A program made the translations under genes and the position numbers. 64,000 bases of DNA from Candidatus Pelearchaeum maunauluense (GTDB lineage Archaea; Thermoproteota; Nitrososphaeria_A; Caldarchaeales; Caldarchaeaceae): NCBI GenBank assembly GCA_030059675.1, contig JANVYQ010000001.1, positions 307,032-371,031 of the forward strand, read 5' to 3'. This document shows, in pieces, positions 14,282 to 64,000 of this stretch; the stretch's first letter is position 1, and each line of letters starts with the position of its first letter. Below the pieces are notes generated by a model. It was not told the DNA's origin. It worked only from the letters and a program-made list of their open reading frames with translations, and ran no database searches.

Positions 14282-15135
14282 ATGGTATCGGAGATTCTTG
14301 TTAGGTATGTTTTAAATAAGCATGAAAGACGTGATAGCTGGTTTTTAGATGATTATTCTCTTAATCCCTATAAGCTATGTTAGGGGAAGTAAATACGGAG
14401 AGAATATGGGCAATGAGCTGGCCGTTAAGATTAACGCTCCTCTTCTCCTAAGTAAGGAGCTCACAAGATTAGCAGCTAGAAACAAATATGGAATAATCGC
14501 TATAGGAACAGCTACAGAGCCTTGGATGAAGATAGAAGAAAAATACAAAATAACTAGAGCTTGTCTTGAGATGATCGCCAAGCATAGATTCCCAGTTCAC
14601 TGCCTAACAAAATCACCTATAATTCTAAGAGATTTAGACTTGTTGAGAGAAATAGATGAATATGCTATACTTCCTTACAACTTGAAAGAACAACTTAATC
14701 ATAGAAGTATGATAACGATATCTCTATCAACGTTGGATGATTCTGTCGCAGCTATCTTTGAACCAGGCGCTCCTAAACCAACTGACCGGCTTAAGCTTTT
14801 GGGAAAAATTAAGGACGCTGGCATCTATGCTGGCATAGCTTATATCCTGTATTACCATTCATCTCAGATTCTGATGAACAGTTAGACGAGATGTGAAGAC
14901 AGCCAAGGACTCTAATGCTGATTATGTTCTCATAGGTGCATTAACGCTATATGGCGTTGGTAAGAAACTTTACTATAAACTTCTGGAAAGAAACTATCCA
15001 GAGCTACTTCCAAAATACAGAAAGTTATTCAAGCTTTTCAACCAACCACCAAAAAGTTATCAACTAACTCTGGAGAGGAAAGCAAAAATAATATGTGAGA
15101 AATATGGAATTAAGCATAGGCTTGTTAATCTTTAG
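14282..15135 (+). pseudogene. Decayed radical-SAM (SplB/COG1533-like) gene
   Basis: The N-terminal piece MVSEILVRYVLNKHERRDSWFLDDYSLNPYKLC stops at 14381-14383, just where the CxxxCxxC cluster is expected. ORF 14349-14885 (KINAPLLLSKEL...GTATEPW...CLTKSPIILRDLDLL) and ORF 14893-15135 continue in other frames, with further shifts near 14845 and 14890. Confidence 0.6.
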
Positions 15136-15415
15136 TTACGTATATAGCATATAGAACTAACGCAAATCCTACAGCAGTTATTAACGCTTCTATTGTATGT
15201 GCAGCGACTAAACTATATTGAAAGAATTCAGATAATATGCCCTCTATTACCGCTCCTAACGTTATGAGTAGAAAAGCAACTGATAACACCACGAATGGAG
15301 GCTTGTTAGCTATCTTCTTCCTCGCCTGGTAGCTTATGTAAACTAGAATAAGCCCCGCAACGACGAGAGCCAGACGAGCTATAACGAGAGCTATGTGAAA
15401 CGACATAATGCGCAC
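15125..15415 (-). CDS. Small membrane protein (3 TM), paralog of 16029-16235
   Basis: LILVYISYQARKK...VVLSVAFLLITLGAVIEGILSEF aligns with IIVVVSYGAYRRV...LFVSLGFGLITLGSLVEGFLFEI of 16029-16235. Confidence 0.6.
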   Translation of the reverse strand: MRIMSFHIALVIARLALVVAGLILVYISYQARKKIANKPPFVVLSVAFLLITLGAVIEGILSEFFQYSLVAAHTIEALITAVGFALVLYAIYVTKD

Positions 15416-15427
15416 CTTAGCATCATT

Positions 15428-15715
15428 TTACAGCCTCTCTAAGAGTCCAGCGCCAACGCACCGTAAGTATTGCAGCGATAATATTAACATGAAGAGATGA
15501 TCTAAGCTAGCAGTTTCTTGGAGAAACGATGTCTTGATATTTTCCAACAACTCCGTTGGTAGACAGCCTATTATGAATAAGAGGAGTAATGTGGGGAAAT
15601 CGTTTAAAATTCTCCTACCTTTTCTAGCTCTCTTGACCACCAAAGACAGTGAGAGTATTATGGCCAGTATGAGAACAACCATGGTGGATATATAAAATAT
15701 ATCTTCAACCTGCAC
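15428..15715 (-). CDS. Small membrane protein
   Basis: 95-aa ORF with two or three hydrophobic helices, in the same-strand gene string behind the wHTH gene. Confidence 0.45.
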   Translation of the reverse strand: MQVEDIFYISTMVVLILAIILSLSLVVKRARKGRRILNDFPTLLLLFIIGCLPTELLENIKTSFLQETASLDHLFMLILSLQYLRCVGAGLLERL

Positions 15716-15980
15716 GGCCTAAACGCGCCTCAACATAACTATAATATAATACAACTAGGAGTATGAGGAGAGCAGATAACAGTTCAAGCAAGGACTTTAG
15801 AAGACTTTGCTCAACGAACGCGGCAAGATTGTAAAAGCCGTGTATAAATAGTCCCAACGCAAATAGTAGGGAGAGAATGAAAAACCGCCTATTAGAACTG
15901 TAGACCAACTTAGCTAAATAGAATGGTATTATTGAGGCATACCAAACAACTAAAGCGGTAGCAAGCTGGAAATAATCCAA
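15705..15980 (-). CDS. Small membrane protein
   Basis: 91-aa hydrophobic ORF that overlaps the next gene by 11 bp, an operon-like arrangement. Confidence 0.45.
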   Translation of the reverse strand: MDYFQLATALVVWYASIIPFYLAKLVYSSNRRFFILSLLFALGLFIHGFYNLAAFVEQSLLKSLLELLSALLILLVVLYYSYVEARLGRAG

Positions 15981-16028
15981 CTACGTCACCTTTTCATCAC
16001 TATGTCTTTCTGAAAGAGTATATGAGTA

Positions 16029-16235
16029 TTAGAAAGCAAGCTTATTTTTTAAGATTTCAAAGAGAAAGCCCTCTACGAGAGACCCTAGTGTTATTAGTCC
16101 AAATCCAAGTGATACAAATAGCATCATTCTGCTTTTTACCCTTCTATAAGCACCATAGCTTACTACTACTATTATAATTCCGAGTATAAGCACGACAAGC
16201 TTAGCAAATGTGAGAAAAATTATTTCAGAAACCAT
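16029..16235 (-). CDS. Small membrane protein, shorter paralog of 15125-15415
   Basis: See the alignment under 15125-15415. At 68 aa it lacks the last helix of the 96-aa paralog. Confidence 0.5.
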   Translation of the reverse strand: MVSEIIFLTFAKLVVLILGIIIVVVSYGAYRRVKSRMMLFVSLGFGLITLGSLVEGFLFEILKNKLAF

Positions 16236-16292
16236 TATTCCTCTCCACTCCTTAGAGAGTAAAAGCGTCTAAATGCCTTATCAATTACACCT

Positions 16293-16538
16293 CTATTGGG
16301 CGTAGCCTCCACCTTCAAACCTTATAGTAACGCTGCTGAATGTGCTCCTGTATAGAGAATATTTCTTCCCATCTTTACTATGTTCTATACGCTCAATAGT
16401 TAGTATCCCCTGCTCTTTAAGCTCATTCATAATCCTAAAAGCAGTTGTGTAAGGAATATCACATTCTTTTATAAGCTCAATGACACTCTTCGCCCTCACA
16501 ACTGTGCTGGCTATAATCTTAGATGGGGAGTAGGACAT
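16293..16538 (-). CDS. Small winged-helix transcription regulator
   Basis: SVIELIKECDIPYTTAFRIMNELKEQGILTIERI...GKKYSLY shows an HTH plus wing pattern. It is the first gene of the minus-strand string. Confidence 0.6.
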   Translation of the reverse strand: MSYSPSKIIASTVVRAKSVIELIKECDIPYTTAFRIMNELKEQGILTIERIEHSKDGKKYSLYRSTFSSVTIRFEGGGYAQ

Positions 16539-16544
16539 GAATTC

Positions 16545-16832
16545 ATGGTGGTAAAGGATAAGGATGCAATGCTGACGGAGATAAGAGACACGGTAAATGA
16601 ATTAAAAGCGCAAGGACTTGATGAAGAAGATATTGAGGGCTCGCATGAAATACACGAGATACATGAGAAATATGCTGAGGAAGACGTTGCTGTGGAGCCT
16701 GGAGAAACTAAAACTTTCTTCCTAAAGTTTGACGCTCCAGGAACTTACTCCTACCTATGTACAGAGTTGGCAGCAACATTTCCAGATACTCATGCAGATG
16801 AGGGAATGGTTGGCAAAATAGTAGTTGAATAA
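16545..16832 (+). CDS. Cupredoxin-like fragment/protein (C-terminal Cys-His-Met copper ligand set)
   Basis: GTYSYLCTELAATFPDTHADEGMVGKIVVE matches the type-1/CuA cupredoxin C-terminal motif (Y.C....H...GM.G.i.V). There is no signal peptide, and 95 aa is short for a full domain. Confidence 0.5.
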   Translation: MVVKDKDAMLTEIRDTVNELKAQGLDEEDIEGSHEIHEIHEKYAEEDVAVEPGETKTFFLKFDAPGTYSYLCTELAATFPDTHADEGMVGKIVVE

Positions 16833-16958
16833 TAAAACAACTACTTTTCCTATTATCTTTTTATTCTCCAATGCATGATTATTAATGAAGTCTTGAGAGT
16901 GTGAATGCTTGCTCTAGGTGATGAATGTTCTTCATAGGTTTTGGAGGTGTGGCATCCT

Positions 16959-19056: not shown

Positions 19057-19191
19057 CCCGCGGTAGCTCAGCCTGGTAGAGCGCCCGGCTGTAGAAGGCC
19101 AGCCCCATGGCTGAGCCAAAGGAACAGCACTACCAGGCACAAAAATACGGAAACCGGGTGGTCGCAGGTTCAAATCCTGCCCGCGGGACCA
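19057..19191 (+). tRNA. tRNA-Tyr (GTA) with a ~58-nt intron after position 37, CCA encoded
   Basis: Acceptor stem CCCGCGG/CCGCGGG, D arm GCTC-AGCCTGGTA-GAGC, and anticodon stem CCCGG/CCGGG with loop CT-GTA-G[intron ~19095-19152]A. T arm GCAGG-TTCAAAT-CCTGC, discriminator A, then CCA at 19189-19191. Confidence 0.9.
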
Positions 19192-54970: not shown

Positions 54971-55863
54971 TATGCCTCTCCCCCTGTTATCATCTTTGCA
55001 GCGGCTTCTATCGCGCGGCGGGTGAGTATCTTAGATGCCTCGCGCCTGAATTCCCCAGACGCCCTAAAATCAGATGCAGGGCTTATCTCCCTCTCCATAA
55101 CCTCCATAGCCTCCCTGAGCATCTCGTAGCCTATGCGCTTACCCGTGAGGAACCGCTCAGCCTCATGCGCTCTCCCCGCCTCCCTGCCGCGTACCCTGTT
55201 GAGCGCAATCCTAATTTCATCCACAACATAATTGTCATCAAGCCTTAGCATGAGCGAGACCGTAACTATCCCTATCCCATTAGCTGCCCTCATCTCCAGC
55301 TTGTTAAACCACGTCCACGAGTTCTTGCCAAGGTCTTTGAAGAACACCTCTGTTATTATCTCGTCTTCGCGTAGCTCTGGTCTCCATGCTGGCGCTATTC
55401 TCTCTCCTTCTCTGCTCTTGATACGCGCGTAGCCCTCAAGAACGTGGAAGACCTGCACTAGGTCGCGCTCCCCGCCTGAGCTAATATTACCCCCAACCGT
55501 GGCCATGTTCCTTATGCTCCAAGAGCCGAAGTGGATATCCATGGCTTTGAAGCAGTAGTATCTCCTGCCCAGCCATGCTACTGAGCTGACTAGCTGGCTG
55601 ACGGCTGTTAGGGCACCTATCCTAACAATCCCGTTATCATGCTTAACATAGCGTAGCTCGCGGAGACCAGTAATATCAACAAGCCTACGCGGCCTCAACG
55701 CTCCACGCCGCATAGCTGGTATGATGTCAGTCCCGCCAGCGATTATGGAAGCGCCCCTACCCTCGCCAGCGAGATAGTCGAGCAAGTCCCCCATTCTGGA
55801 GGGAAGATAGATTTCCAGCTCAGGTATCTCCCTCGGCAGCCAACCCCAAGCAGAGCAAGCCAA
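54970..55863 (-). CDS. FAD-binding medium subunit of Mo-hydroxylase (CoxM/CutM-like)
   Basis: IIAGGTDIIPAMRRG and ATVGGNIS motifs are present. Its stop overlaps the start of the small-subunit gene. Confidence 0.85.
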   Translation of the reverse strand: MACSAWGWLPREIPELEIYLPSRMGDLLDYLAGEGRGASIIAGGTDIIPAMRRGALRPRRLVDITGLRELRYVKHDNGIVRIGALTAVSQLVSSVAWLGRRYYCFKAMDIHFGSWSIRNMATVGGNISSGGERDLVQVFHVLEGYARIKSREGERIAPAWRPELREDEIITEVFFKDLGKNSWTWFNKLEMRAANGIGIVTVSLMLRLDDNYVVDEIRIALNRVRGREAGRAHEAERFLTGKRIGYEMLREAMEVMEREISPASDFRASGEFRREASKILTRRAIEAAAKMITGGEA

Positions 55864-57636: not shown

Positions 57637-59562
57637 CTACATCTCCTCAAGTAGAGGTATGCCCAATACCCAGCAGACATTCTCCATCACTTGCCTGAAC
57701 GCCTTGACCAGGCCGAGTCTAAAGCGGGTAGTCTCCTCACCAGCGCCTAGGACTGGACACTTCTCGTAAAAGTCGTTAAACGTGCTTGAGAGCTCATGCG
57801 CATAGACGGCGAGGCGCTTGATTAGTAGGAGCTTCTCAACCTCCTCCATAACCAGCGGCATCTGGGCCAGCTTCCTGATAAGCTCCCTCTCCGCCTCGTG
57901 AAGCTCATCCGCGGGAGGCTTGACAGAATGCTCAGCCCAGCCAGACTTCTCCAAAATACGCGTGGCGCGCGCATAGCTATACTGGAGGTATGGGCCTGTA
58001 GCCCCCTCAAGGGAAGTAGCCTCCTCGGTATCAAAGACTATCATCTTCTCGGCGTCGCTCTTGAGTAAGCCGTATCTAAGAGCGGCCACAGCTATCTTCT
58101 CTCCCGTTTCTTCCAGCTTCTCCCTACTCCAGTCTGGGTGTCGTTTCGCCGCTTCCTCCGCGGCCTTCCGCTTGATTACATCTAAAACAGCGTCGGCGTT
58201 GATGTATATCCCCTCACGGCCACTCATGTGGGTAAACCTGCCGCCAACATCTACACCCAGCCGCTCAGCATCCCGCCTGCTCAACGTAACAACAGCATAA
58301 GCAAAATGTATGTAACGTCCCTCACCACCTCCTAGGGCCTTAACACCATACTTAACAGCCTCCTGCGGCCTCTTCTGCCTAGCGTCTATGACATTAACCG
58401 AGAGCCATGTCTCACCTAAGGTGAATCTCTCACCCCCCTCTGGGTCTGTTATTAGTATCCGCGTCCCGTCTGGGTTCTCGCCCCACACGCTATACGTGAA
58501 GTCTCGTTCAAGTAGGCCTAGCTTCCACGCTGCATAGGCAATATCACGCGCAACATATGTGGTTACGCCGTCGCTCTTGACCAGCACTTCGTCCCCCTCC
58601 CTGCTCAGCGTCGGGTGGCCTGCCAAGCTAATGAGCCAGCACCCCTTCTTAGGCCCGTCTTCCGCCAAGTAGATTATCCCACTCTTCTTGAGGCGTTCAA
58701 ATGTCTCGCGCCAGATGTCAAACGCTATGATGTCGCTCTCCCTGTTGAGTATGTCATAGCGCGCGCCCAGCCGCCAGCATGTGGAGAGCTGCTCGCGCAG
58801 TACGCGGCTAACGAGCCTACGGTTATACCTGAACGTCTCCGAGCCCGCGTCCTCAAGCTCGGCGATTATCCTACGCTTCTCCGCGGCAAGCTCGGCCTCA
58901 GACTCCACGCGCCTATTGACCTCTGCATAAACCCTGCCGCAGTACTCGTCAAACCTCTCTCCGTCTGGCGGCTGCTCGCTGTAGCCCAGCTTCCTAAACG
59001 CTAGGTGTATATCAGCCATCTGGTTCCCGCTGTCGTCTATGTAGTTGGCCACAACAACCCTGTAGCCGAGCTTTGTGAAGAGTCGCGCGAGGGTATCGCC
59101 CAGGCATACGTTGCGCGCATGGCCTATGTGGAGCGCCTTATTTGGGTTTACGCTGGTATGCTCCACTAAGACTGTCTTCCCCTCTCCAGAAGGCTTGAAT
59201 CCATACCTCTCGCGTTCTTCCAGAACCTCACCCACGATAGACTCGGCGAACAGCCCCCACCTAACCCTGAAGTTGATGTAGCCAGGCGCCACCGCCTCGG
59301 CTGATGACACGAGCTTCGCAGCAGAGAAATCCATCTTACGGACAGCCTCCTCAGCTATCTGTATCGGCGGTCTCCTCAGCTTCCTAGCCAGCTCAAAAGG
59401 CGCCGTGCTTGAAAGCTCGCCATAGCTGGGGTGCTTGGGCATCTCCAGCCTAGGCTCCTCTATACCTGCTTGCCTCAATAACCACGTTACCTCATCAATG
59501 AGTCGCCGCAAACCTACCACACATCCAGCGCAGTATATTGAGGGGGAGCTAGAGCCACCCAA
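57637..59562 (-). CDS. argS: Arginyl-tRNA synthetase
   Basis: HIGH-type motif NPNKALHIGHARN, an MSGREG (KMSK-equivalent) region and the C-terminal DALR anticodon-binding domain (AVYAHELSSTFNDFYEKCPVL). Confidence 0.9.
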   Translation of the reverse strand: MGGSSSPSIYCAGCVVGLRRLIDEVTWLLRQAGIEEPRLEMPKHPSYGELSSTAPFELARKLRRPPIQIAEEAVRKMDFSAAKLVSSAEAVAPGYINFRVRWGLFAESIVGEVLEERERYGFKPSGEGKTVLVEHTSVNPNKALHIGHARNVCLGDTLARLFTKLGYRVVVANYIDDSGNQMADIHLAFRKLGYSEQPPDGERFDEYCGRVYAEVNRRVESEAELAAEKRRIIAELEDAGSETFRYNRRLVSRVLREQLSTCWRLGARYDILNRESDIIAFDIWRETFERLKKSGIIYLAEDGPKKGCWLISLAGHPTLSREGDEVLVKSDGVTTYVARDIAYAAWKLGLLERDFTYSVWGENPDGTRILITDPEGGERFTLGETWLSVNVIDARQKRPQEAVKYGVKALGGGEGRYIHFAYAVVTLSRRDAERLGVDVGGRFTHMSGREGIYINADAVLDVIKRKAAEEAAKRHPDWSREKLEETGEKIAVAALRYGLLKSDAEKMIVFDTEEATSLEGATGPYLQYSYARATRILEKSGWAEHSVKPPADELHEAERELIRKLAQMPLVMEEVEKLLLIKRLAVYAHELSSTFNDFYEKCPVLGAGEETTRFRLGLVKAFRQVMENVCWVLGIPLLEEM

Positions 59563-59586: not shown

Positions 59587-60064
59587 AACTACCCACCGCA
59601 AGAGAGGCTCTCAATATGTAATTGGCTGTCCCGATCAGGATTTGAAGTGACAATCGTAGATCATACAGGAATTGACATTATAGCCTATAATCCGTTAACG
59701 AAGCAAAGGTTGGGTACTACAGTTAAATCTAGAACTAGGACTCCCGGAAAAGAGGATACTTCAGTCAATATTTTTCTTACAGGAAGGAGAAAAATGACCG
59801 CCAGAAACTTTTAGATGCGTGCGAAGCCTTTACCTGTGAGCCATGGATCGCTGTTTACGTAGAGACTTCAGATTCTGCCGACTTATATCTTACAAGCCTG
59901 AAGAATTATGATGAAAAGTACCGCGGTGGGGAGGAAAAGTAATCGACAAGTGGAAGATGAGGAAGAGGGATAAGGAGCGGTATGAGAAAGATCCCGAAGT
60001 AAAGCATATAGTAATCCATTTCGAGGCAAAAATTGGGACTGGCCGGGAAAGAAATGAGCATTAG
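59587..60064 (+). pseudogene. Remnant of a PD-(D/E)XK-like nuclease-fold gene (N-terminally truncated, at least two frameshifts)
   Basis: Three frames piece together SRSGFEVTIVDHTGIDIIAYNPLTKQRLGTTVKSRTRTPGKEDTSVNIF / KNDRQKLLDACEAFTCEPWIAVYVETSDSADLYLTSLKNYDEKYRGGEEK / VIDKWKMRKRDKERYEKDPEVKHIVIHFEA. No start codon follows the TAA at 59584-59586. Confidence 0.4.
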
Positions 60065-60136
60065 GGCTAAGAAAGGGAAAGGCTAGTATATTGCGAGCAC
60101 CACAACTACGAAGTGGACGAATATGAGTTCGAATAG

Positions 60137-60256
60137 AAGGGCTGCTATCGTTATTTCCGCTATGCCGAGGACTTTCCGTACGTAGATGTATCCGTAGCAG
60201 CCGAAATGCTCGGCGTTTCGAAGGCAACGGTCAGGCGGTGGGTAAATCGACGGTAA
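60137..60256 (+). pseudogene. Start-less remnant encoding an excisionase/MerR-type helix-turn-helix
   Basis: The frame reads KGCYRYFRYAEDFPYVDVSVAAEMLGVSKATVRRWVNRR*. The VSVAAEMLGVSKATVRRWV segment is a classic excisionase-family HTH. No ATG/GTG/TTG lies upstream in frame. Confidence 0.35.
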
Positions 60257-60432
60257 GTAGTTAGTACCTATATACAAAACTTGAAAGATCAACTTTTTCA
60301 CACCCCTCCACCAGACTCCCTTCAGCTCTACAACGTATGGAGGTTTCAGCAATGTGACCCTCGCTACGGTATGGGCTATCCAGGGAGATCCATAGGCAAA
60401 TAAAGCATGGGAAGCTAAGGGGCAGGCCGTTC

Positions 60433-62172
60433 GTGAAGGGAAGGATAGACCTCGACGCCCCCAATGCGCGGGCCATTCCTATAATAACTCTCCGCCGCGT
60501 CTGGGCTCGGAAGGACGTTTACTGGAAGGGGAAGGAGTTTGAATGCTTAATTATTCCTCCCCGTCAGGTGCCGTGTAGGTGCTTCATGCAGGTAGGCGGG
60601 CAGCCGGTCGCGGTGGAGCGCTCTTCAAGCTTCCAGGACTACCCCATGTACCGCCCCGCCTCCGCGTACTGGGAGAAATATACCCGCGAGGCCCTCCTGT
60701 GGCTCCGCGCTCACATACTGTCTGGCGGCAATCCGGGCATAAGCTACCTTCTCCTATGCATAGACGCGCTGGCCCCCAGCTTCGAGAGGGAGGGCTACCC
60801 CGAGATGGTAGGCAAGATCAAGGAGATGCTCGTGGAGAGGGCACGCGCGCCGCACGCGCTCTACAGCTATACTGCGCCGAGCCGCGATGTTGTGGGCCTG
60901 CTCACCGACGCCTTCAGGGCAGCTGGCATCCAACAGCCCGAGCTCCCGCGGATGATGCAGATAGCCGGGTCCAGCGAGCTGGGGAAGCTAGACAGCCAGC
61001 TGAGGAGCGCCGGCAGGCTGGCTCAGGCGGCCATACTAACCGACTGGGTAAGCCACGCGTGCTACGTCCCGTACAGGCTCGCGGCCGAGATGTACGCCTC
61101 CACCCTCGGCGTGAGCAGCCGAACATTCGAGCGCATCGCCTCTATTGCGAGGGGCATGGGCGTAACGAGCAGGCGCATGTACGTCGCCAGCATATCGGCG
61201 GCTCACGCTATACAGCGGAGGCATGTCAGGGCGATGCCTCTCTCCAGACTCCACGCATACATGCCTGAGGTAGTAATGATGCTAGCCGAATCATGCTCGC
61301 TCTACATATCCAACATCTTCTCCTCCGGGAGGGACAGGCTCGGCGGCTTCGGGAGGGCCTTGGAGGAGAGGCTGGACCGCGAGTGCTACGGGCAGTGGAA
61401 AGGATGGGAGGACACGTTCTACACTTTCTTCATAACGCTTGTGAGAGACGAGGCCTATCTCCCGCTCTACTACCTCTCCACAAACGGGGCCGCATACCAT
61501 GCATACGCCGCCCTGCTGGTCGGCGGATACCGGGGGAAGTCCATGAAACCTGAGAGGGCCTGGGAGATAGTTGAAGAGTGGCTCTCACGGGAGGCTGTGC
61601 GCCGACCAGGCAGCAATACCAGGAAAACGATGTTCACCAGGGGCGTGGCAGCGCTCCTCGGGCTTGGGAGACTACGCTACACGCAGGACGGCGAGCTACT
61701 GGTAGTGGACGACGATATAGCCGAGCGCAGCGAGCAGATATTCCACCTCTATGCTAGCAGGTGCCAGAGCAGGAACGTGCCAGCCATCCTAGAGCTAGCC
61801 AGAAAAATATTCTTCAAGACGTGCTTGGCCCCCGCCGAGAGCTTCGCCGCCGCGCTGGTATACACGGGCCTACTACATCCCTGCCCCGCCGACGCCCCCA
61901 GGGCTGCGGTAAGAGCCATATGCAGGCATCTCGGAGAGATAGGCAGAGTGATAGCAACTAGGGTGGAAGCCCGCCTCAGAAATCGTAACCTACACCTACT
62001 AGAGCAGCACGTCCTACTCACCCGCAGCAACAGCGAGGCACATGAAATATGGAGACAAGCCATGAGAATAGCAACACACCACATAAGCAAAACAACACCA
62101 AAGGAACTACCCGAGACAGTAATCCAAAGAATACACGAAGACTATACACGCCATCAGCCCAGCGACGCCTAG
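60433..62172 (+). CDS. Orphan 579-aa protein in high-GC island
   Basis: This is the longest open frame in a region where several frames are open because of high GC. I recognise no motif family. GTG start. Confidence 0.45.
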   Translation: MKGRIDLDAPNARAIPIITLRRVWARKDVYWKGKEFECLIIPPRQVPCRCFMQVGGQPVAVERSSSFQDYPMYRPASAYWEKYTREALLWLRAHILSGGNPGISYLLLCIDALAPSFEREGYPEMVGKIKEMLVERARAPHALYSYTAPSRDVVGLLTDAFRAAGIQQPELPRMMQIAGSSELGKLDSQLRSAGRLAQAAILTDWVSHACYVPYRLAAEMYASTLGVSSRTFERIASIARGMGVTSRRMYVASISAAHAIQRRHVRAMPLSRLHAYMPEVVMMLAESCSLYISNIFSSGRDRLGGFGRALEERLDRECYGQWKGWEDTFYTFFITLVRDEAYLPLYYLSTNGAAYHAYAALLVGGYRGKSMKPERAWEIVEEWLSREAVRRPGSNTRKTMFTRGVAALLGLGRLRYTQDGELLVVDDDIAERSEQIFHLYASRCQSRNVPAILELARKIFFKTCLAPAESFAAALVYTGLLHPCPADAPRAAVRAICRHLGEIGRVIATRVEARLRNRNLHLLEQHVLLTRSNSEAHEIWRQAMRIATHHISKTTPKELPETVIQRIHEDYTRHQPSDA

Positions 62173-62178
62173 AACACC

Positions 62179-62209
62179 ACTACCCCGGCGGCGTCTGTCA
62201 TGCGAAGCG
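62179..62209 (+). repeat. 31-bp direct repeat, copy A (ACTACCCCGGCGGCGTCTGTCATGCGAAGCG)
   Basis: Matches copy B at 30/31 positions, offset 55 bp. Confidence 0.85.
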
Positions 62210-62233
62210 AGTGACACCTCCCGCCAGCCCTTA

Positions 62234-62264
62234 ACTACCCCGGCGGCGACTGTCATGCGAAGCG
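62234..62264 (+). repeat. 31-bp direct repeat, copy B (ACTACCCCGGCGGCGACTGTCATGCGAAGCG), contains the ATG of the ParB-like gene
   Basis: Read directly from the sequence. The ATG at 62255 lies inside this copy. The equivalent ATG in copy A (62200) opens only MRSE*. Confidence 0.85.
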
Positions 62265-63316
62265 CTGCACACTTGGTGCCAGCGGTTCTGCCCGGGCCTG
62301 TAAGGCTTATACGTCTGTGTCTGGATGGTCTTGGTCTGATGTCTGGGGACGAGGCGAAGATCGTCTGGCTCCCGCTTGACGCCCTGACGAAGGACCCCTT
62401 TAACATCCGCGACGACGAGGAGCCGTCGCCAGTGGTGGTGGAGCGCCTCAGTCGGCTGGGCTTCATGGCGAGCGATGTGGAGCCGCTCGTAAGGCGGCTC
62501 GGCGAGGGCAGGTACGGCGTGGTCGACGGCTGGAAGAGGTGTGTCGCCGCTAGGAGGGCTGGCCTAGACATGATAAGATGCAAGCTAGTAGAGATGAACG
62601 ATGTCAGGGCCTGGGTGGAGAGCTACCTACTTAACAGCGAGCACCGCCCCCTGACACTCCGCGACCGTATCCGTGCGTACAAGCTAGCCATGAAGCTATC
62701 GGACGGCGATATTGAGGCGTTCTACAGGCTGATAACCACAGAGTACGGCACGCCGGAGCGCGTTGTGTCGGACCTGGAGGGCGTGAGAGACGTCATCGGC
62801 GAGCTCGCCCAGAGGACTCCAGCGGGAAGCGGCAGGCTATCCACCTCCCCCCGCGCAGGCCCCCGGCCGAGCGTGGAGCACAGTCTGGACGGGGAAGAGC
62901 CGCAACCGCTGGAAGCTTCCAGGCCCGAGTCGCCCCCTGGGGAGGTAGAGCATGCCGAAGCCCCGCGCGCCGTCGAGACGCGCGAGCAGCTGGTCGCCGG
63001 CGTTCCCGCTGGGAATGCGGCGGTGGTTCAGCGGGCCGGGGAGGACGCACAGCAACAACCAGCCGAGAAGCCCCTGGACCCAGATGAGCGGCTAGATGCC
63101 CTGCTGCGCGAGCTGGAGCTGCGGGGGCTGCATATAGACTCGAGCACGAAGGAGCTCGCCGACGCATTCGTACTCACCATGCGCGAGGACCTCCACTACT
63201 ACCAGCTTAGTGGATCCGGCCTGAAGGTGCTATCGTGCCCCAGCGGCTTCCACCTGCTCCGCTGCCCGAGCTGTGGCATGCCTGTATTCTGCCGCGAGTG
63301 CGGGAGCCCTAGATGA
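62255..63316 (+). CDS. ParB/Srx-fold N-terminal domain protein with low-complexity acidic/Pro-rich linker and C-terminal zinc ribbon
   Basis: LDALTKDPFNIRDD...PLVRRLGEGRYGVVDGWKRCVAARRAGLDMIRCKLV fits the ParB N-domain (box II G-x-[RK]-R). The C-terminus is CPSGFHLLRCPSCGMPVFCRECG. Confidence 0.6.
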   Translation: MRSAAHLVPAVLPGPVRLIRLCLDGLGLMSGDEAKIVWLPLDALTKDPFNIRDDEEPSPVVVERLSRLGFMASDVEPLVRRLGEGRYGVVDGWKRCVAARRAGLDMIRCKLVEMNDVRAWVESYLLNSEHRPLTLRDRIRAYKLAMKLSDGDIEAFYRLITTEYGTPERVVSDLEGVRDVIGELAQRTPAGSGRLSTSPRAGPRPSVEHSLDGEEPQPLEASRPESPPGEVEHAEAPRAVETREQLVAGVPAGNAAVVQRAGEDAQQQPAEKPLDPDERLDALLRELELRGLHIDSSTKELADAFVLTMREDLHYYQLSGSGLKVLSCPSGFHLLRCPSCGMPVFCRECGSPR

Positions 63317-63384
63317 GCCGGTGGGTTAAACCCCGTCGCTAACCCTCCCAAATTTATATGATGACCCGAGCATACTCCCAGCGT

Positions 63385-63966
63385 ATGTCCAGGATATGGG
63401 GGCTCAGCCTGTGGAGTCTCTCGCGGGAGGAGATGAGCTTGTTCTGGCACGGCGTGTACTCGCTACTCAGGCTTACGCTTTCAATTCCTTTTTGGATTTC
63501 TGTTAGGCTAAACAACGGGCCCCACTCAGCCAAGGTGGAGATATCCGGCGAGGAGTTCAGCATACACCTCGTGAAGGTGAAGGCAGAAGGCCCGACGATT
63601 GAGAGGTACGCGCCAAAGAATGTAAAGATAGACACCAGGAGCCATGACGACACGAGGAACATCCTCTACTGGGTAGGTGCGAGGAGGAAGAGGGCCAGGC
63701 AGGGAGACGTGCAGGACCAGTTGGAGAACACGCGCTGCACCCTCGTACTCATACATCCCGTCAAAAACCAGTCCCTATACCTAGGCGTGCAGGAGCACTG
63801 GCTCAGCAGCGGCGTCTTCATCACGGGAACGCGCGGCGGAGTGAGCTACGTCATGGCGATACCAGCCGGGAACCGGAGCAAGATTGTACGGGAGACCATA
63901 GTAGAGGCCTTCCACTCATTTATCCTCCCGCAGCTACCTTTCAATTCCTTTTTGGATTTCTGTTGA
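63385..63966 (+). CDS. Hypothetical ORF spanning/between the two CRISPR-type repeats (start uncertain: ATG 63385 or GTG 63535)
   Basis: The frame is open from 63358 to 63966. A TATA-like TTTATAT at 63353-63359 lies ~30 nt before the ATG at 63385. The TGA stop is at 63964-63966. No family recognised. Confidence 0.3.
   Translation: MSRIWGLSLWSLSREEMSLFWHGVYSLLRLTLSIPFWISVRLNNGPHSAKVEISGEEFSIHLVKVKAEGPTIERYAPKNVKIDTRSHDDTRNILYWVGARRKRARQGDVQDQLENTRCTLVLIHPVKNQSLYLGVQEHWLSSGVFITGTRGGVSYVMAIPAGNRSKIVRETIVEAFHSFILPQLPFNSFLDFC
63478..63504 (-). CRISPR. CRISPR-type repeat copy 1 (minus-strand reading AACAGAAATCCAAAAAGGAATTGAAAG)
   Basis: Perfect 27-nt identity with 63938-63964. The 3' end GGAATTGAAAG matches the crenarchaeal repeat family that carries the ATTGAAAG handle. 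Confidence 0.55.
63938..63964 (-). CRISPR. CRISPR-type repeat copy 2
   Basis: Same 27-nt sequence, 460 bp from copy 1. Only 36 nt follow before the window ends. Confidence 0.55.
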
Positions 63967-64000
63967 CGGTGGCAGCGCCGCTGAATGCTCCCCCAGCACC

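Follow-up and report, generated by a model that had tools for sequence, protein, structure and literature searches.

Two CRISPR-type repeats within one open reading frame

The stretch of DNA analysed here, referred to as the window, comprises 64,000 nt of contig NODE_10 (NODE_10_length_371327) of the metagenome-assembled genome (MAG) 146_bin21 of Pelearchaeum maunauluense, an uncultivated archaeon of a hot fumarole, and corresponds to positions 307,032–371,031 of that contig; the published Prodigal proteins agree exactly with the window (PMC10547907). All positions are window coordinates, from which contig coordinates are obtained by adding 307,031. Close to the right end of the window, two copies (R1 and R2) of a repeat resembling those of CRISPR arrays were found inside a single open reading frame (ORF), which follows a ParB-like gene and another ORFan gene in a compositionally foreign island (Table 1).

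The + strand 27-mer CTTTCAATTCCTTTTTGGATTTCTGTT occurs at both sites with 0 mismatches and with a start-to-start distance of 460 nt, as the initial annotation had claimed, so that 433 nt (63505–63937) separate the two copies. They are the only matches in the 64 kb, even when 3 mismatches are tolerated, and dinucleotide shuffles gave 0 expected 27-mer matches. The bases flanking the copies differ on both sides (on the left G at R1 and C at R2, on the right A and G), which means that the duplication measures exactly 27 nt. The intervening unit holds no degenerate repeat copy, again in agreement with the initial annotation, the best internal match being 14/25 on the opposite strand. No third copy is present at the left border of the island, and the best further + strand match in the window stays below 16/25. 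A canonical array has at least three regularly placed repeats and unique spacers of ~30–45 nt; here there are two copies, 433 nt apart. As used for solitary repeat units, the rule that no second repeat lies within 100 bp describes both copies, neither of which has a partial copy nearby. A 23-mer of the repeat was absent from GTDB representative genomes and viral contigs, and a 21-mer was absent from viral contigs.

Table 1. Features of the repeat locus and of the adjoining island (window coordinates).
Feature	Position	Strand	Remarks
Decayed left part of the island	59617..60432		AT-rich, 45% G+C; frameshifted PD-(D/E)xK-like gene and helix-turn-helix fragment
ORF579, ORFan, 579 aa (also called 455 aa, P0002)	60433..62172	+	Gene _441; G+C content of third codon positions (GC3) 0.73
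ParB_N-like protein, C-terminal Cys-rich zinc-ribbon-like tail	62255..63316	+	Gene _442; GC3 0.76
TATA-like box TTTATAT	63353..63359	+	Read from the sequence; 26–32 nt upstream of ATG 63385, centred at ~29 nt
ORFan gene, 193 aa from ATG 63385	63385..63966	+	Contains R1 and ends in R2; gene _443 of NODE_10 (PMC10547907)
Repeat copy R1	63478..63504	CRISPR-sense minus	Exact 27-mer, reading AACAGAAATCCAAAAAGGAATTGAAAG in CRISPR-sense
433-bp unit, coding	63505..63937	+	GC3 0.78; codon log-odds; no repeat remnants
Repeat copy R2	63938..63964	CRISPR-sense minus	Exact 27-mer, same sequence as R1
Flank right of R2	63965..64000		36 nt, 69% G+C, not leader-like
Gene _444, 32 aa	63985..64083	+	Published Prodigal protein MLPQHLSNNMIISAMGSVEFSDFLLKSFGVVF followed by a stop, G+C 0.414 (PMC10547907)

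Assignment of the repeat to a CRISPR family

Relatives of the repeat were sought by an exact scan of JGI metagenomes with the first 21 nt of the 27-mer. These 21 nt are found identically in the 25-nt repeat CTTTCAATTCCTTTTTGGATTCAAG of regular metagenomic arrays, and over its 25-nt core the 27-mer agrees with the repeat of five arrays (L007, L011, L013, L021 and L022) at 22/25 positions. The related arrays have 10–39 repeats at a spacing of 60–67 nt and a conserved AT-rich leader (GGAAACTATTTATTT...) on their right side; in L007, genes for Cas4 and Csa3 lie directly past the leader. The reverse complement of the core matches the AB repeat of Saccharolobus solfataricus, GAUUAAUCCCAAAAGGAAUUGAAAG, at 21/25 positions (AB sequence from PMC4041471). 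Read in this direction, the repeat ends in GGAATTGAAAG, of which the last 8 nt form the ATTGAAAG handle, or AUUGAAAG tag. The AB repeat is cut by Cas6 at the base of a 3-bp stem, leaving the 8-nt AUUGAAAG handle (PMC4041471). The fold predicted for the repeat studied here, UCC-AAAAA-GGA, likewise has a 3-bp mini-stem, with an energy of -1.8 kcal/mol that is no better than that of shuffled sequences. From the leader polarity of the related arrays it follows that the CRISPR-sense at this locus is the minus strand, and that any leader would sit right of R2.

In so huge a metagenome set, the 21-mer is also met by chance within ordinary genes (L005, L008). A single copy therefore proves little, and the case rests on the exact 27-mer pair together with the family match. 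Judged by these sequence comparisons, the 27-mer is a genuine CRISPR repeat of the type I-A/III class, of the kind that is processed by Cas6. This upholds the initial annotation, in which the repeat was called type I-A/III-style with a ATTGAAAG handle; its label 'crenarchaeal' holds for the repeat class and fails for the host, which belongs to the Caldarchaeales (formerly Aigarchaeota) and so lies outside the Crenarchaeota as narrowly defined. None of the 153 spacers collected from the related metagenomic arrays matched the window.

The related repeat family also includes a conserved mini-array with two repeats in metagenomes (L001 2273–2366; the same locus in L003, L019 and L023). It consists of a degenerate CATCCAATTCCTTCTCGAATCCAAG, a 44-nt spacer and a perfect CTTTCAATTCCTTTTTGGATTCAAG, and is located directly upstream of a Cas6-like gene (with glycine-rich loop) and a CARF/Csa3-like gene. 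This mini-array looks like a CRISPR RNA (crRNA)-like regulator of cas expression.

The repeat-bearing ORF and the 433-bp unit

Starting at 63343, the + frame stays open up to the TGA at 63964–63966, the first base of which (T) is the last base of R2. Besides ATG 63385, starts have been called at TTG 63439 (175 aa) and at GTG 63454 (170 aa, P0001). The TATA-like box that the initial annotation placed ahead of ATG 63385 is present, and as a putative promoter it would suit a leaderless mRNA beginning at this ATG. Read in frame, R1 contributes the nine codons of LSIPFWISV, and R2 provides the last nine residues of the ORF, PFNSFLDFC. A length of 27 nt equals nine codons, and the + strand of the repeat is free of stops in every frame. 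The CRISPR-sense is antisense to the ORF.

With a codon model of the host, the unit scores +0.41 bits/codon in one + frame, inside the range of real genes (0.23–0.50 bits/codon), and is negative in the other five frames. The GC3 phase continues unbroken across R1: upstream of it, 27/31 third positions are G or C (binomial P = 7.5e-4), within a 93-nt stretch for which codon statistics cannot tell the + frame from the minus frame of the same third-position phase. The reading frame thus appears to run through R1, and it terminates in R2. Codon usage and the open frame indicate that the 433-bp unit is protein-coding DNA in the island's own style, which bears out the earlier description of the unit as protein-like with a TGA overlapping R2. 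A further proposal, that a gene cassette had been captured between the repeats, was correct in that the unit is coding, but not with respect to enclosure. Since the frame and the GC3 signal start upstream of R1 and the ORF ends inside R2, the gene is pierced by the repeats rather than enclosed by them.

In-silico removal of both repeats leaves an intact ORF of 181 aa with a stop at TGA 63982–63984, and removal of the unit plus one repeat likewise leaves the frame open. This TGA lies near the point at which the G+C content drops from 69% to ~36%, and the drop near 64000 is compatible with a gene end there. The abutment of the TGA on the ATG of the following 32-aa ORF was considered as proof of an ancestral gene end at 63984, and was downgraded; the ORF in question, which is AT-rich, is probably spurious.

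The 193-aa ORF has no detected homologue, its sole match in sets of 5.8 billion and 1.8 billion proteins being itself. The initial annotation had pointed to archaeal viruses and plasmids as a possible source of relatives of the unit and its translation. There were none: no DNA relative among phages, plasmids or viral contigs, no relative in the protein sets and no related viral loci. An AlphaFold model of the ORF was unusable (predicted local distance difference test score, pLDDT, of 35).

The strain-specific island

The host gene for arginyl-tRNA synthetase (57637–59562, minus strand) encodes a protein sharing 93% identity with its counterpart in a 'Candidatus Pelearchaeum' MAG. At the nucleotide level, similarity to L024, the closest genome (90%), spans this argS gene and breaks off at 59616; the breakpoint falls among the final nine codons of a host gene, of which L024 has an intact copy. 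Beyond the breakpoint, L024 goes on with ordinary transporter genes, which the window lacks, and the island is absent beside its argS. The three island ORFs have GC3 values of 0.73, 0.76 and 0.74, the last being that of the repeat-bearing ORF, as compared with 0.48–0.70 in 35 host genes. Based on synteny and composition, the island is strain-specific and foreign; it is probably mobile. The initial annotation had described the neighbouring DNA as foreign and high in G+C, a view that is borne out by GC3 values above those of all 35 host genes and by the synteny break at 59616.

Of the host gene upstream of argS (L024 8215–8868), only the last ~nine codons (IESLSCGG and the stop) are left at 59590–59616. 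The region 59647–60257 contains decayed, mobile-element-like remnants, namely a frameshifted PD-(D/E)xK-like ORF (GIDIIAY...TVKSRT) and a fragment of an excisionase-type helix-turn-helix protein that lacks a start codon (AAEMLGVSKATVRRWVNRR up to its stop). ORF579 matched only itself among 5.8 billion proteins and had no Pfam, PHROG or phage tblastn match. The ParB-like protein was assigned to PHROG 4715, 'ParB-like partition protein' (E = 5.5e-10), with a match to Pfam ParB_N below the cut-off (E = 0.012). The gap between these two genes is filled by a 50-nt tandem direct repeat (62179–62283; two copies, 82% identical, 55-nt period), which overlaps the start of the ParB-like gene and is a candidate operator or centromere site for its product. 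Phage and plasmid DNA gave no match to the island, and tblastn yielded only a weak match to the ParB domain. The prophage predicted on NODE_10 is unrelated to the island (PMC10547907). R1 and R2 were also considered as attachment sites of an integrated element; this was rejected in view of the mere 433 bp between them, the lack of a third copy at the left border and the lack of a recognised integrase.

Elsewhere in the window, the region 14300–16900 is AT-rich (~40% G+C), encodes several small, very hydrophobic proteins and a small helix-turn-helix protein, and may be another island, its composition being unlike that of its surroundings. A tRNA gene of 132 nt at 19057–19188 (+ strand) is ~60 nt longer than the model (Rfam, 57 bits), was missed by ARAGORN and is presumably intron-bearing. 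No CRISPR-like features were seen in the other repeat-rich or AT-rich parts of the window.

The right flank and the contig end

NODE_10, assembled at ~6x coverage, ends 332 nt after R2 and 296 nt past the end of the window. The flank at 63965–64000 has no similarity to the conserved AT-rich leader of the related arrays, and AT-rich DNA begins only beyond it. Part of the sequence past 64000 is accessible through the published gene _444, which starts 20 nt after R2 and spans 99 nt; its gc_cont of 0.414 gives a G+C content of ~36% for the 83 nt past the window end. None of the repeat-encoded peptides LSIPFWISV, FQFLFGFL and FNSFLDFC occurs in gene _444, and, whatever the offset, a back-translation of the gene can agree with the repeat at no more than 18/25 positions. 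There is consequently no repeat copy of at least 76% identity in the 119 nt after R2, beyond which 213 nt of contig follow. A degenerate third repeat at 64000, suggested by the canonical 62-nt spacing and by 'LS...IS' residues, was rejected with at most 17/25 identity, no better than at other offsets. A synthetic query combining the repeat-encoded peptides with the frames that cross the window boundary retrieved only the known ORF from the set of 5.8 billion proteins, and the 21-mer at 63968–63988 in the flank had no viral match. No CRISPR array is listed on NODE_10 in PMC10547907, for which four CRISPR detectors were used and evidence levels 3–4 were kept. The repeat pair does not form the end of a regular array. 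The initial annotation had considered it the trailer end of an array beyond the window and looked to the sequence past 64000 for the continuation; the repeat-free gene _444 and the absence of a listed array on NODE_10 contradict this.

CRISPR-Cas systems of the host

The P. maunauluense MAG encodes a I-A system (with cas6) and a III-D system (PMC10547907). The III-D locus lies at the other end of NODE_10 (contig positions 2,727–11,120), ~360 kb from the repeat pair, and the I-A interference module including cas6 is on NODE_382. The only arrays listed for the MAG are on NODE_280 (55,225–55,509 and 60,106–61,519); they have 4 and 21 spacers with a period of 65–66 nt and are set 4.6 kb apart. No cas1, cas2 or cas4 is listed for MAG 146_bin21 (all from PMC10547907). 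The distances to the respective contig ends are 332 nt for the repeat pair, 431 nt for the 21-spacer array and 300 nt for the I-A cas6. The CRISPR region of this MAG may be one unassembled, heterogeneous locus.

As stated in the initial annotation, no cas gene is visible in the 64 kb: no Cas family is among the PADLOC matches listed for 52 window ORFs (25 of 33 families listed). Window ORFs did give PADLOC matches to DrmC-like, Mad3/Mad8-like, AriA-like and ATPase-Toprim models.

Interpretation of the repeat pair

Stand-alone host-like repeats and mini-arrays of 1–2 spacers occur on archaeal viruses and plasmids, where mini-arrays exclude sibling viruses (PMC6858448), and solitary repeat units act as RNA anti-CRISPRs (Racr) that bind Cas6 and Cas7 (PMC10651486). 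Our preferred, if tentative, reading is that the repeat pair is of this kind, that is, either element-borne stand-alone repeats or a leaderless, cas-less mini-array of one unit. The repeat belongs to a real CRISPR family, no regular array continues beyond it, it is set among foreign ORFans, and it is antisense to the ORF. Of the explanations offered in the initial annotation, a mini-array carried by a foreign element thus fits best, although a leader is not visible and the spacer is not of normal size.

Several observations weigh against this reading. Within the window, no promoter or leader is visible on the minus strand; the 36 nt adjacent to R2 are GC-rich, unlike the leader of the family, and the end of the contig 332 nt past R2 limits the context on this side. 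Both repeats lie inside a coding ORF and are antisense to it. This differs from the solitary repeats of the Racr type, which are intergenic, are located directly downstream of a promoter and give rise to a small RNA in repeat-sense, and also from the mini-arrays of the Saccharolobus portogloboviruses SPV1 and SPV2, which contain 1–2 normal spacers, are intergenic and have a promoter-bearing leader, whereas here a 433-bp unit without a visible leader is situated in an ORF. The repeat is described as host-type from the cas subtype and the period of the arrays rather than from a sequence match. As to the island itself, no integrase was recognised among the family matches of its ORFs, no hallmark of a virus or plasmid is recognisable besides the ParB-like gene, and it is not called a prophage in PMC10547907.

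If the preferred reading holds, the mini-array would carry 433 bp of island-style coding DNA in place of a spacer of 35–42 nt, and the exact 27-nt duplication with its sharp edges would be the footprint of a repeat-duplicating event. That event could have been staggered integration of the Cas1-Cas2 type into a solitary repeat, or recombination with a host array. Insertion of the unit into a solitary repeat with duplication of the latter, a reaction that follows spacer-integration chemistry, would explain the sharp 27-nt edges, at the cost of an insert ten times the normal length and of a coincidence of ~1 in 6 in strand and frame with the upstream phase. Alternatively, two in-frame insertions of 27 nt (9 codons) into an existing gene of 181 aa would account for the continuous frame and for a gene end near 63984; we know of no mechanism that inserts repeats into a gene.

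Transcription of the minus strand could start in the AT-rich DNA right of R2, where a promoter could lie; the G+C content falls from 69% to ~36% just right of the locus, which is the upstream side in CRISPR-sense and a possible promoter region. Each repeat would then be cleaved by host Cas6 at 8 nt from its 3' end, which would free a 460-nt RNA with the canonical AUUGAAAG 5' tag. This RNA could titrate Cas6 and Cas7 as a decoy resembling an RNA anti-CRISPR. It could also, after trimming of its 3' end, guide the host I-A or III-D system against sibling elements whose copy of the gene has no repeats, which would amount to exclusion of the mini-array type. These roles as decoy or guide are proposed by likeness to known elements, for a locus that is seen once, is not conserved and lies at the end of a MAG contig with 6x coverage. 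A more specific scenario is highly improbable in our view: that the mobile element's own gene was bracketed in place by two in-frame 27-nt host CRISPR repeats and can still be translated from one strand, with a giant antisense pre-crRNA from the other strand processed by host Cas6, trimmed RNA directing I-A or III-D against the unbracketed sibling gene, and self spared by tag-antitag pairing and by the lack of a protospacer-adjacent motif. If true, this would constitute an exclusion module without spacer acquisition, and would call for a mechanism by which repeats, and not spacers, are inserted.

The pair might instead be an inert scar without present function, left in the island gene by a one-off aberrant event, which we regard as unlikely but as the main rival. 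Such an event could have been ectopic integration by Cas1-Cas2, in which an over-long fragment entered a lone repeat, or a host array could have recombined illegitimately with the island. An exact duplication of 27 nt with sharp edges is what repeat duplication classically leaves behind, a leader, a nearby cas gene and a normal spacer are all missing, and decay is plain to see in the left part of the island; moreover, with no relative in any searched database, there is no conservation that argues for function. However, both copies are perfect and the ORF is open through them, indicating either a very recent event or selection, and an inserted unit would match the upstream frame and strand by chance only, in ~1 of 6 cases. 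Cas1-Cas2 integrases also measure the length of prespacers, and an insert of 433 bp is outside their known products. It is improbable that the pair is a fragment of a larger host CRISPR locus broken by assembly, the two repeats being displaced outliers of an array past the contig end, such as the 21-spacer array of NODE_280, with foreign DNA inserted between them. At least 119 nt after R2 are devoid of a repeat copy of at least 76% identity, the four detectors applied in PMC10547907 (evidence levels 3–4 kept) give no array on NODE_10, and no protein in the set of 5.8 billion contains several repeat-encoded peptides. The coding signature of the island, in one phase on both sides of R1, locates R1 inside the island instead of at the border of an array. 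Circumstances that suggest a broken locus are the mere 332 nt between the pair and the end of a contig with 6x coverage, the two host arrays and cas6 that each lie within ~0.3–6.7 kb of a contig end, the 4.6 kb by which the NODE_280 arrays are already split, and the leader polarity of related arrays, which puts any array to the right.

The remaining explanations are extremely improbable. Position downstream of a ParB gene is classical for parS or sopC-type sites, and the direct repeats begin 162 bp downstream of the ParB-like gene; they could accordingly be sites for machinery of the island, either a centromere-like site or iteron for the ParB-like protein or crossover sites of a recombinase that excises the 460-bp unit, with a secondary likeness to CRISPR. 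Yet 21 contiguous identical bases and the handle are shared with the CRISPR family, far beyond chance, the 50-nt tandem repeat directly before the ParB-like gene is the better candidate, and the island gave no recognisable recombinase gene. Misassembly is frequent at CRISPR repeats, and a chimeric join at them in this low-coverage metaSPAdes assembly has a comparably slight chance of being the cause. The ~6x coverage and the location at a contig end are in its favour, but the final k-mers of 55 and 77 exceed the 27-nt repeat, the assembly path requires reads with the repeat on both sides of the unit, and the unit shares its unusual GC3 and its reading phase with the DNA to its left.

Significance and comparison with known systems

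No described mini-array or solitary repeat has the form found here. By analogy, the pair can be placed, with some reservation, in the broad class of stand-alone repeats and mini-arrays, as a new form of it. On viruses and plasmids, this class represents a newly recognised layer of the conflict between hosts and mobile elements, through RNA anti-CRISPRs or inter-virus exclusion, and the known examples are almost all bacterial or from Sulfolobales. If the pair is functional, the phenomenon reaches the Caldarchaeales, in a form new to description in which in-frame repeats in a coding gene bracket a 433-bp unit. Insertion of the unit with repeat duplication would mean that a fragment ten times the normal length can on occasion be accepted by an adaptation-type integrase; if repeats were inserted into the gene, no known mechanism accounts for this. 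Even as a scar, the locus would be a warning that CRISPR-type repeats of MAGs can hide in called genes and escape array finders.

Isolated or orphan mini-arrays away from cas genes reportedly stem from off-target spacer integration or from transfer by mobile elements. The pair resembles them in being a locus of two repeats remote from cas genes (III-D, on the same contig, is at least 300 kb away) and in the exact repeat duplication that is expected from integrase chemistry, but the insert is ten times as long as any normal spacer, and coding. Points related to such mini-arrays are summarised in PMC8616872. With the solitary repeats and Racr, the locus has in common repeats of a host class on foreign DNA, without cas genes or leader (PMC10651486, PMC6858448), no partner repeat within 100 bp (the SRUFinder criterion), and a host of the matching class, with Cas6-containing I-A and with III-D; it has two identical copies 460 bp apart, whereas solitary repeats have one. 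The mini-arrays of SPV1 and SPV2 share with it the order repeat-unit-repeat without cas genes and the crenarchaeal I-A/III repeat class (PMC6858448). The unit is composed like coding DNA of a mobile element, as would be expected if a sibling element were targeted; no target matching it in the way of the SPV1 and SPV2 spacers was found among phages, plasmids, viral contigs or proteins. Like the crRNA-like regulators (CreTA/crlRNA; bioRxiv 10.1101/2023.03.03.530964), of which the two-repeat mini-array upstream of the Cas6-like gene in L001, L003, L019 and L023 is an example in the same repeat family, the locus presents a repeat pair outside an immune array. Those regulators combine one degenerate repeat with a spacer of ~44 nt inside cas loci, in contrast to two perfect repeats, 433 bp and no cas gene nearby. 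From the canonical I-A/III arrays of Thermoproteota, exemplified by the AB repeats of S. solfataricus, the pair differs in having two copies only, without regular spacing, leader or adjacent cas genes, but it shares with them a repeat identity of 21/25, the AUUGAAAG tag and the 3-bp mini-stem at the site of Cas6 cleavage.

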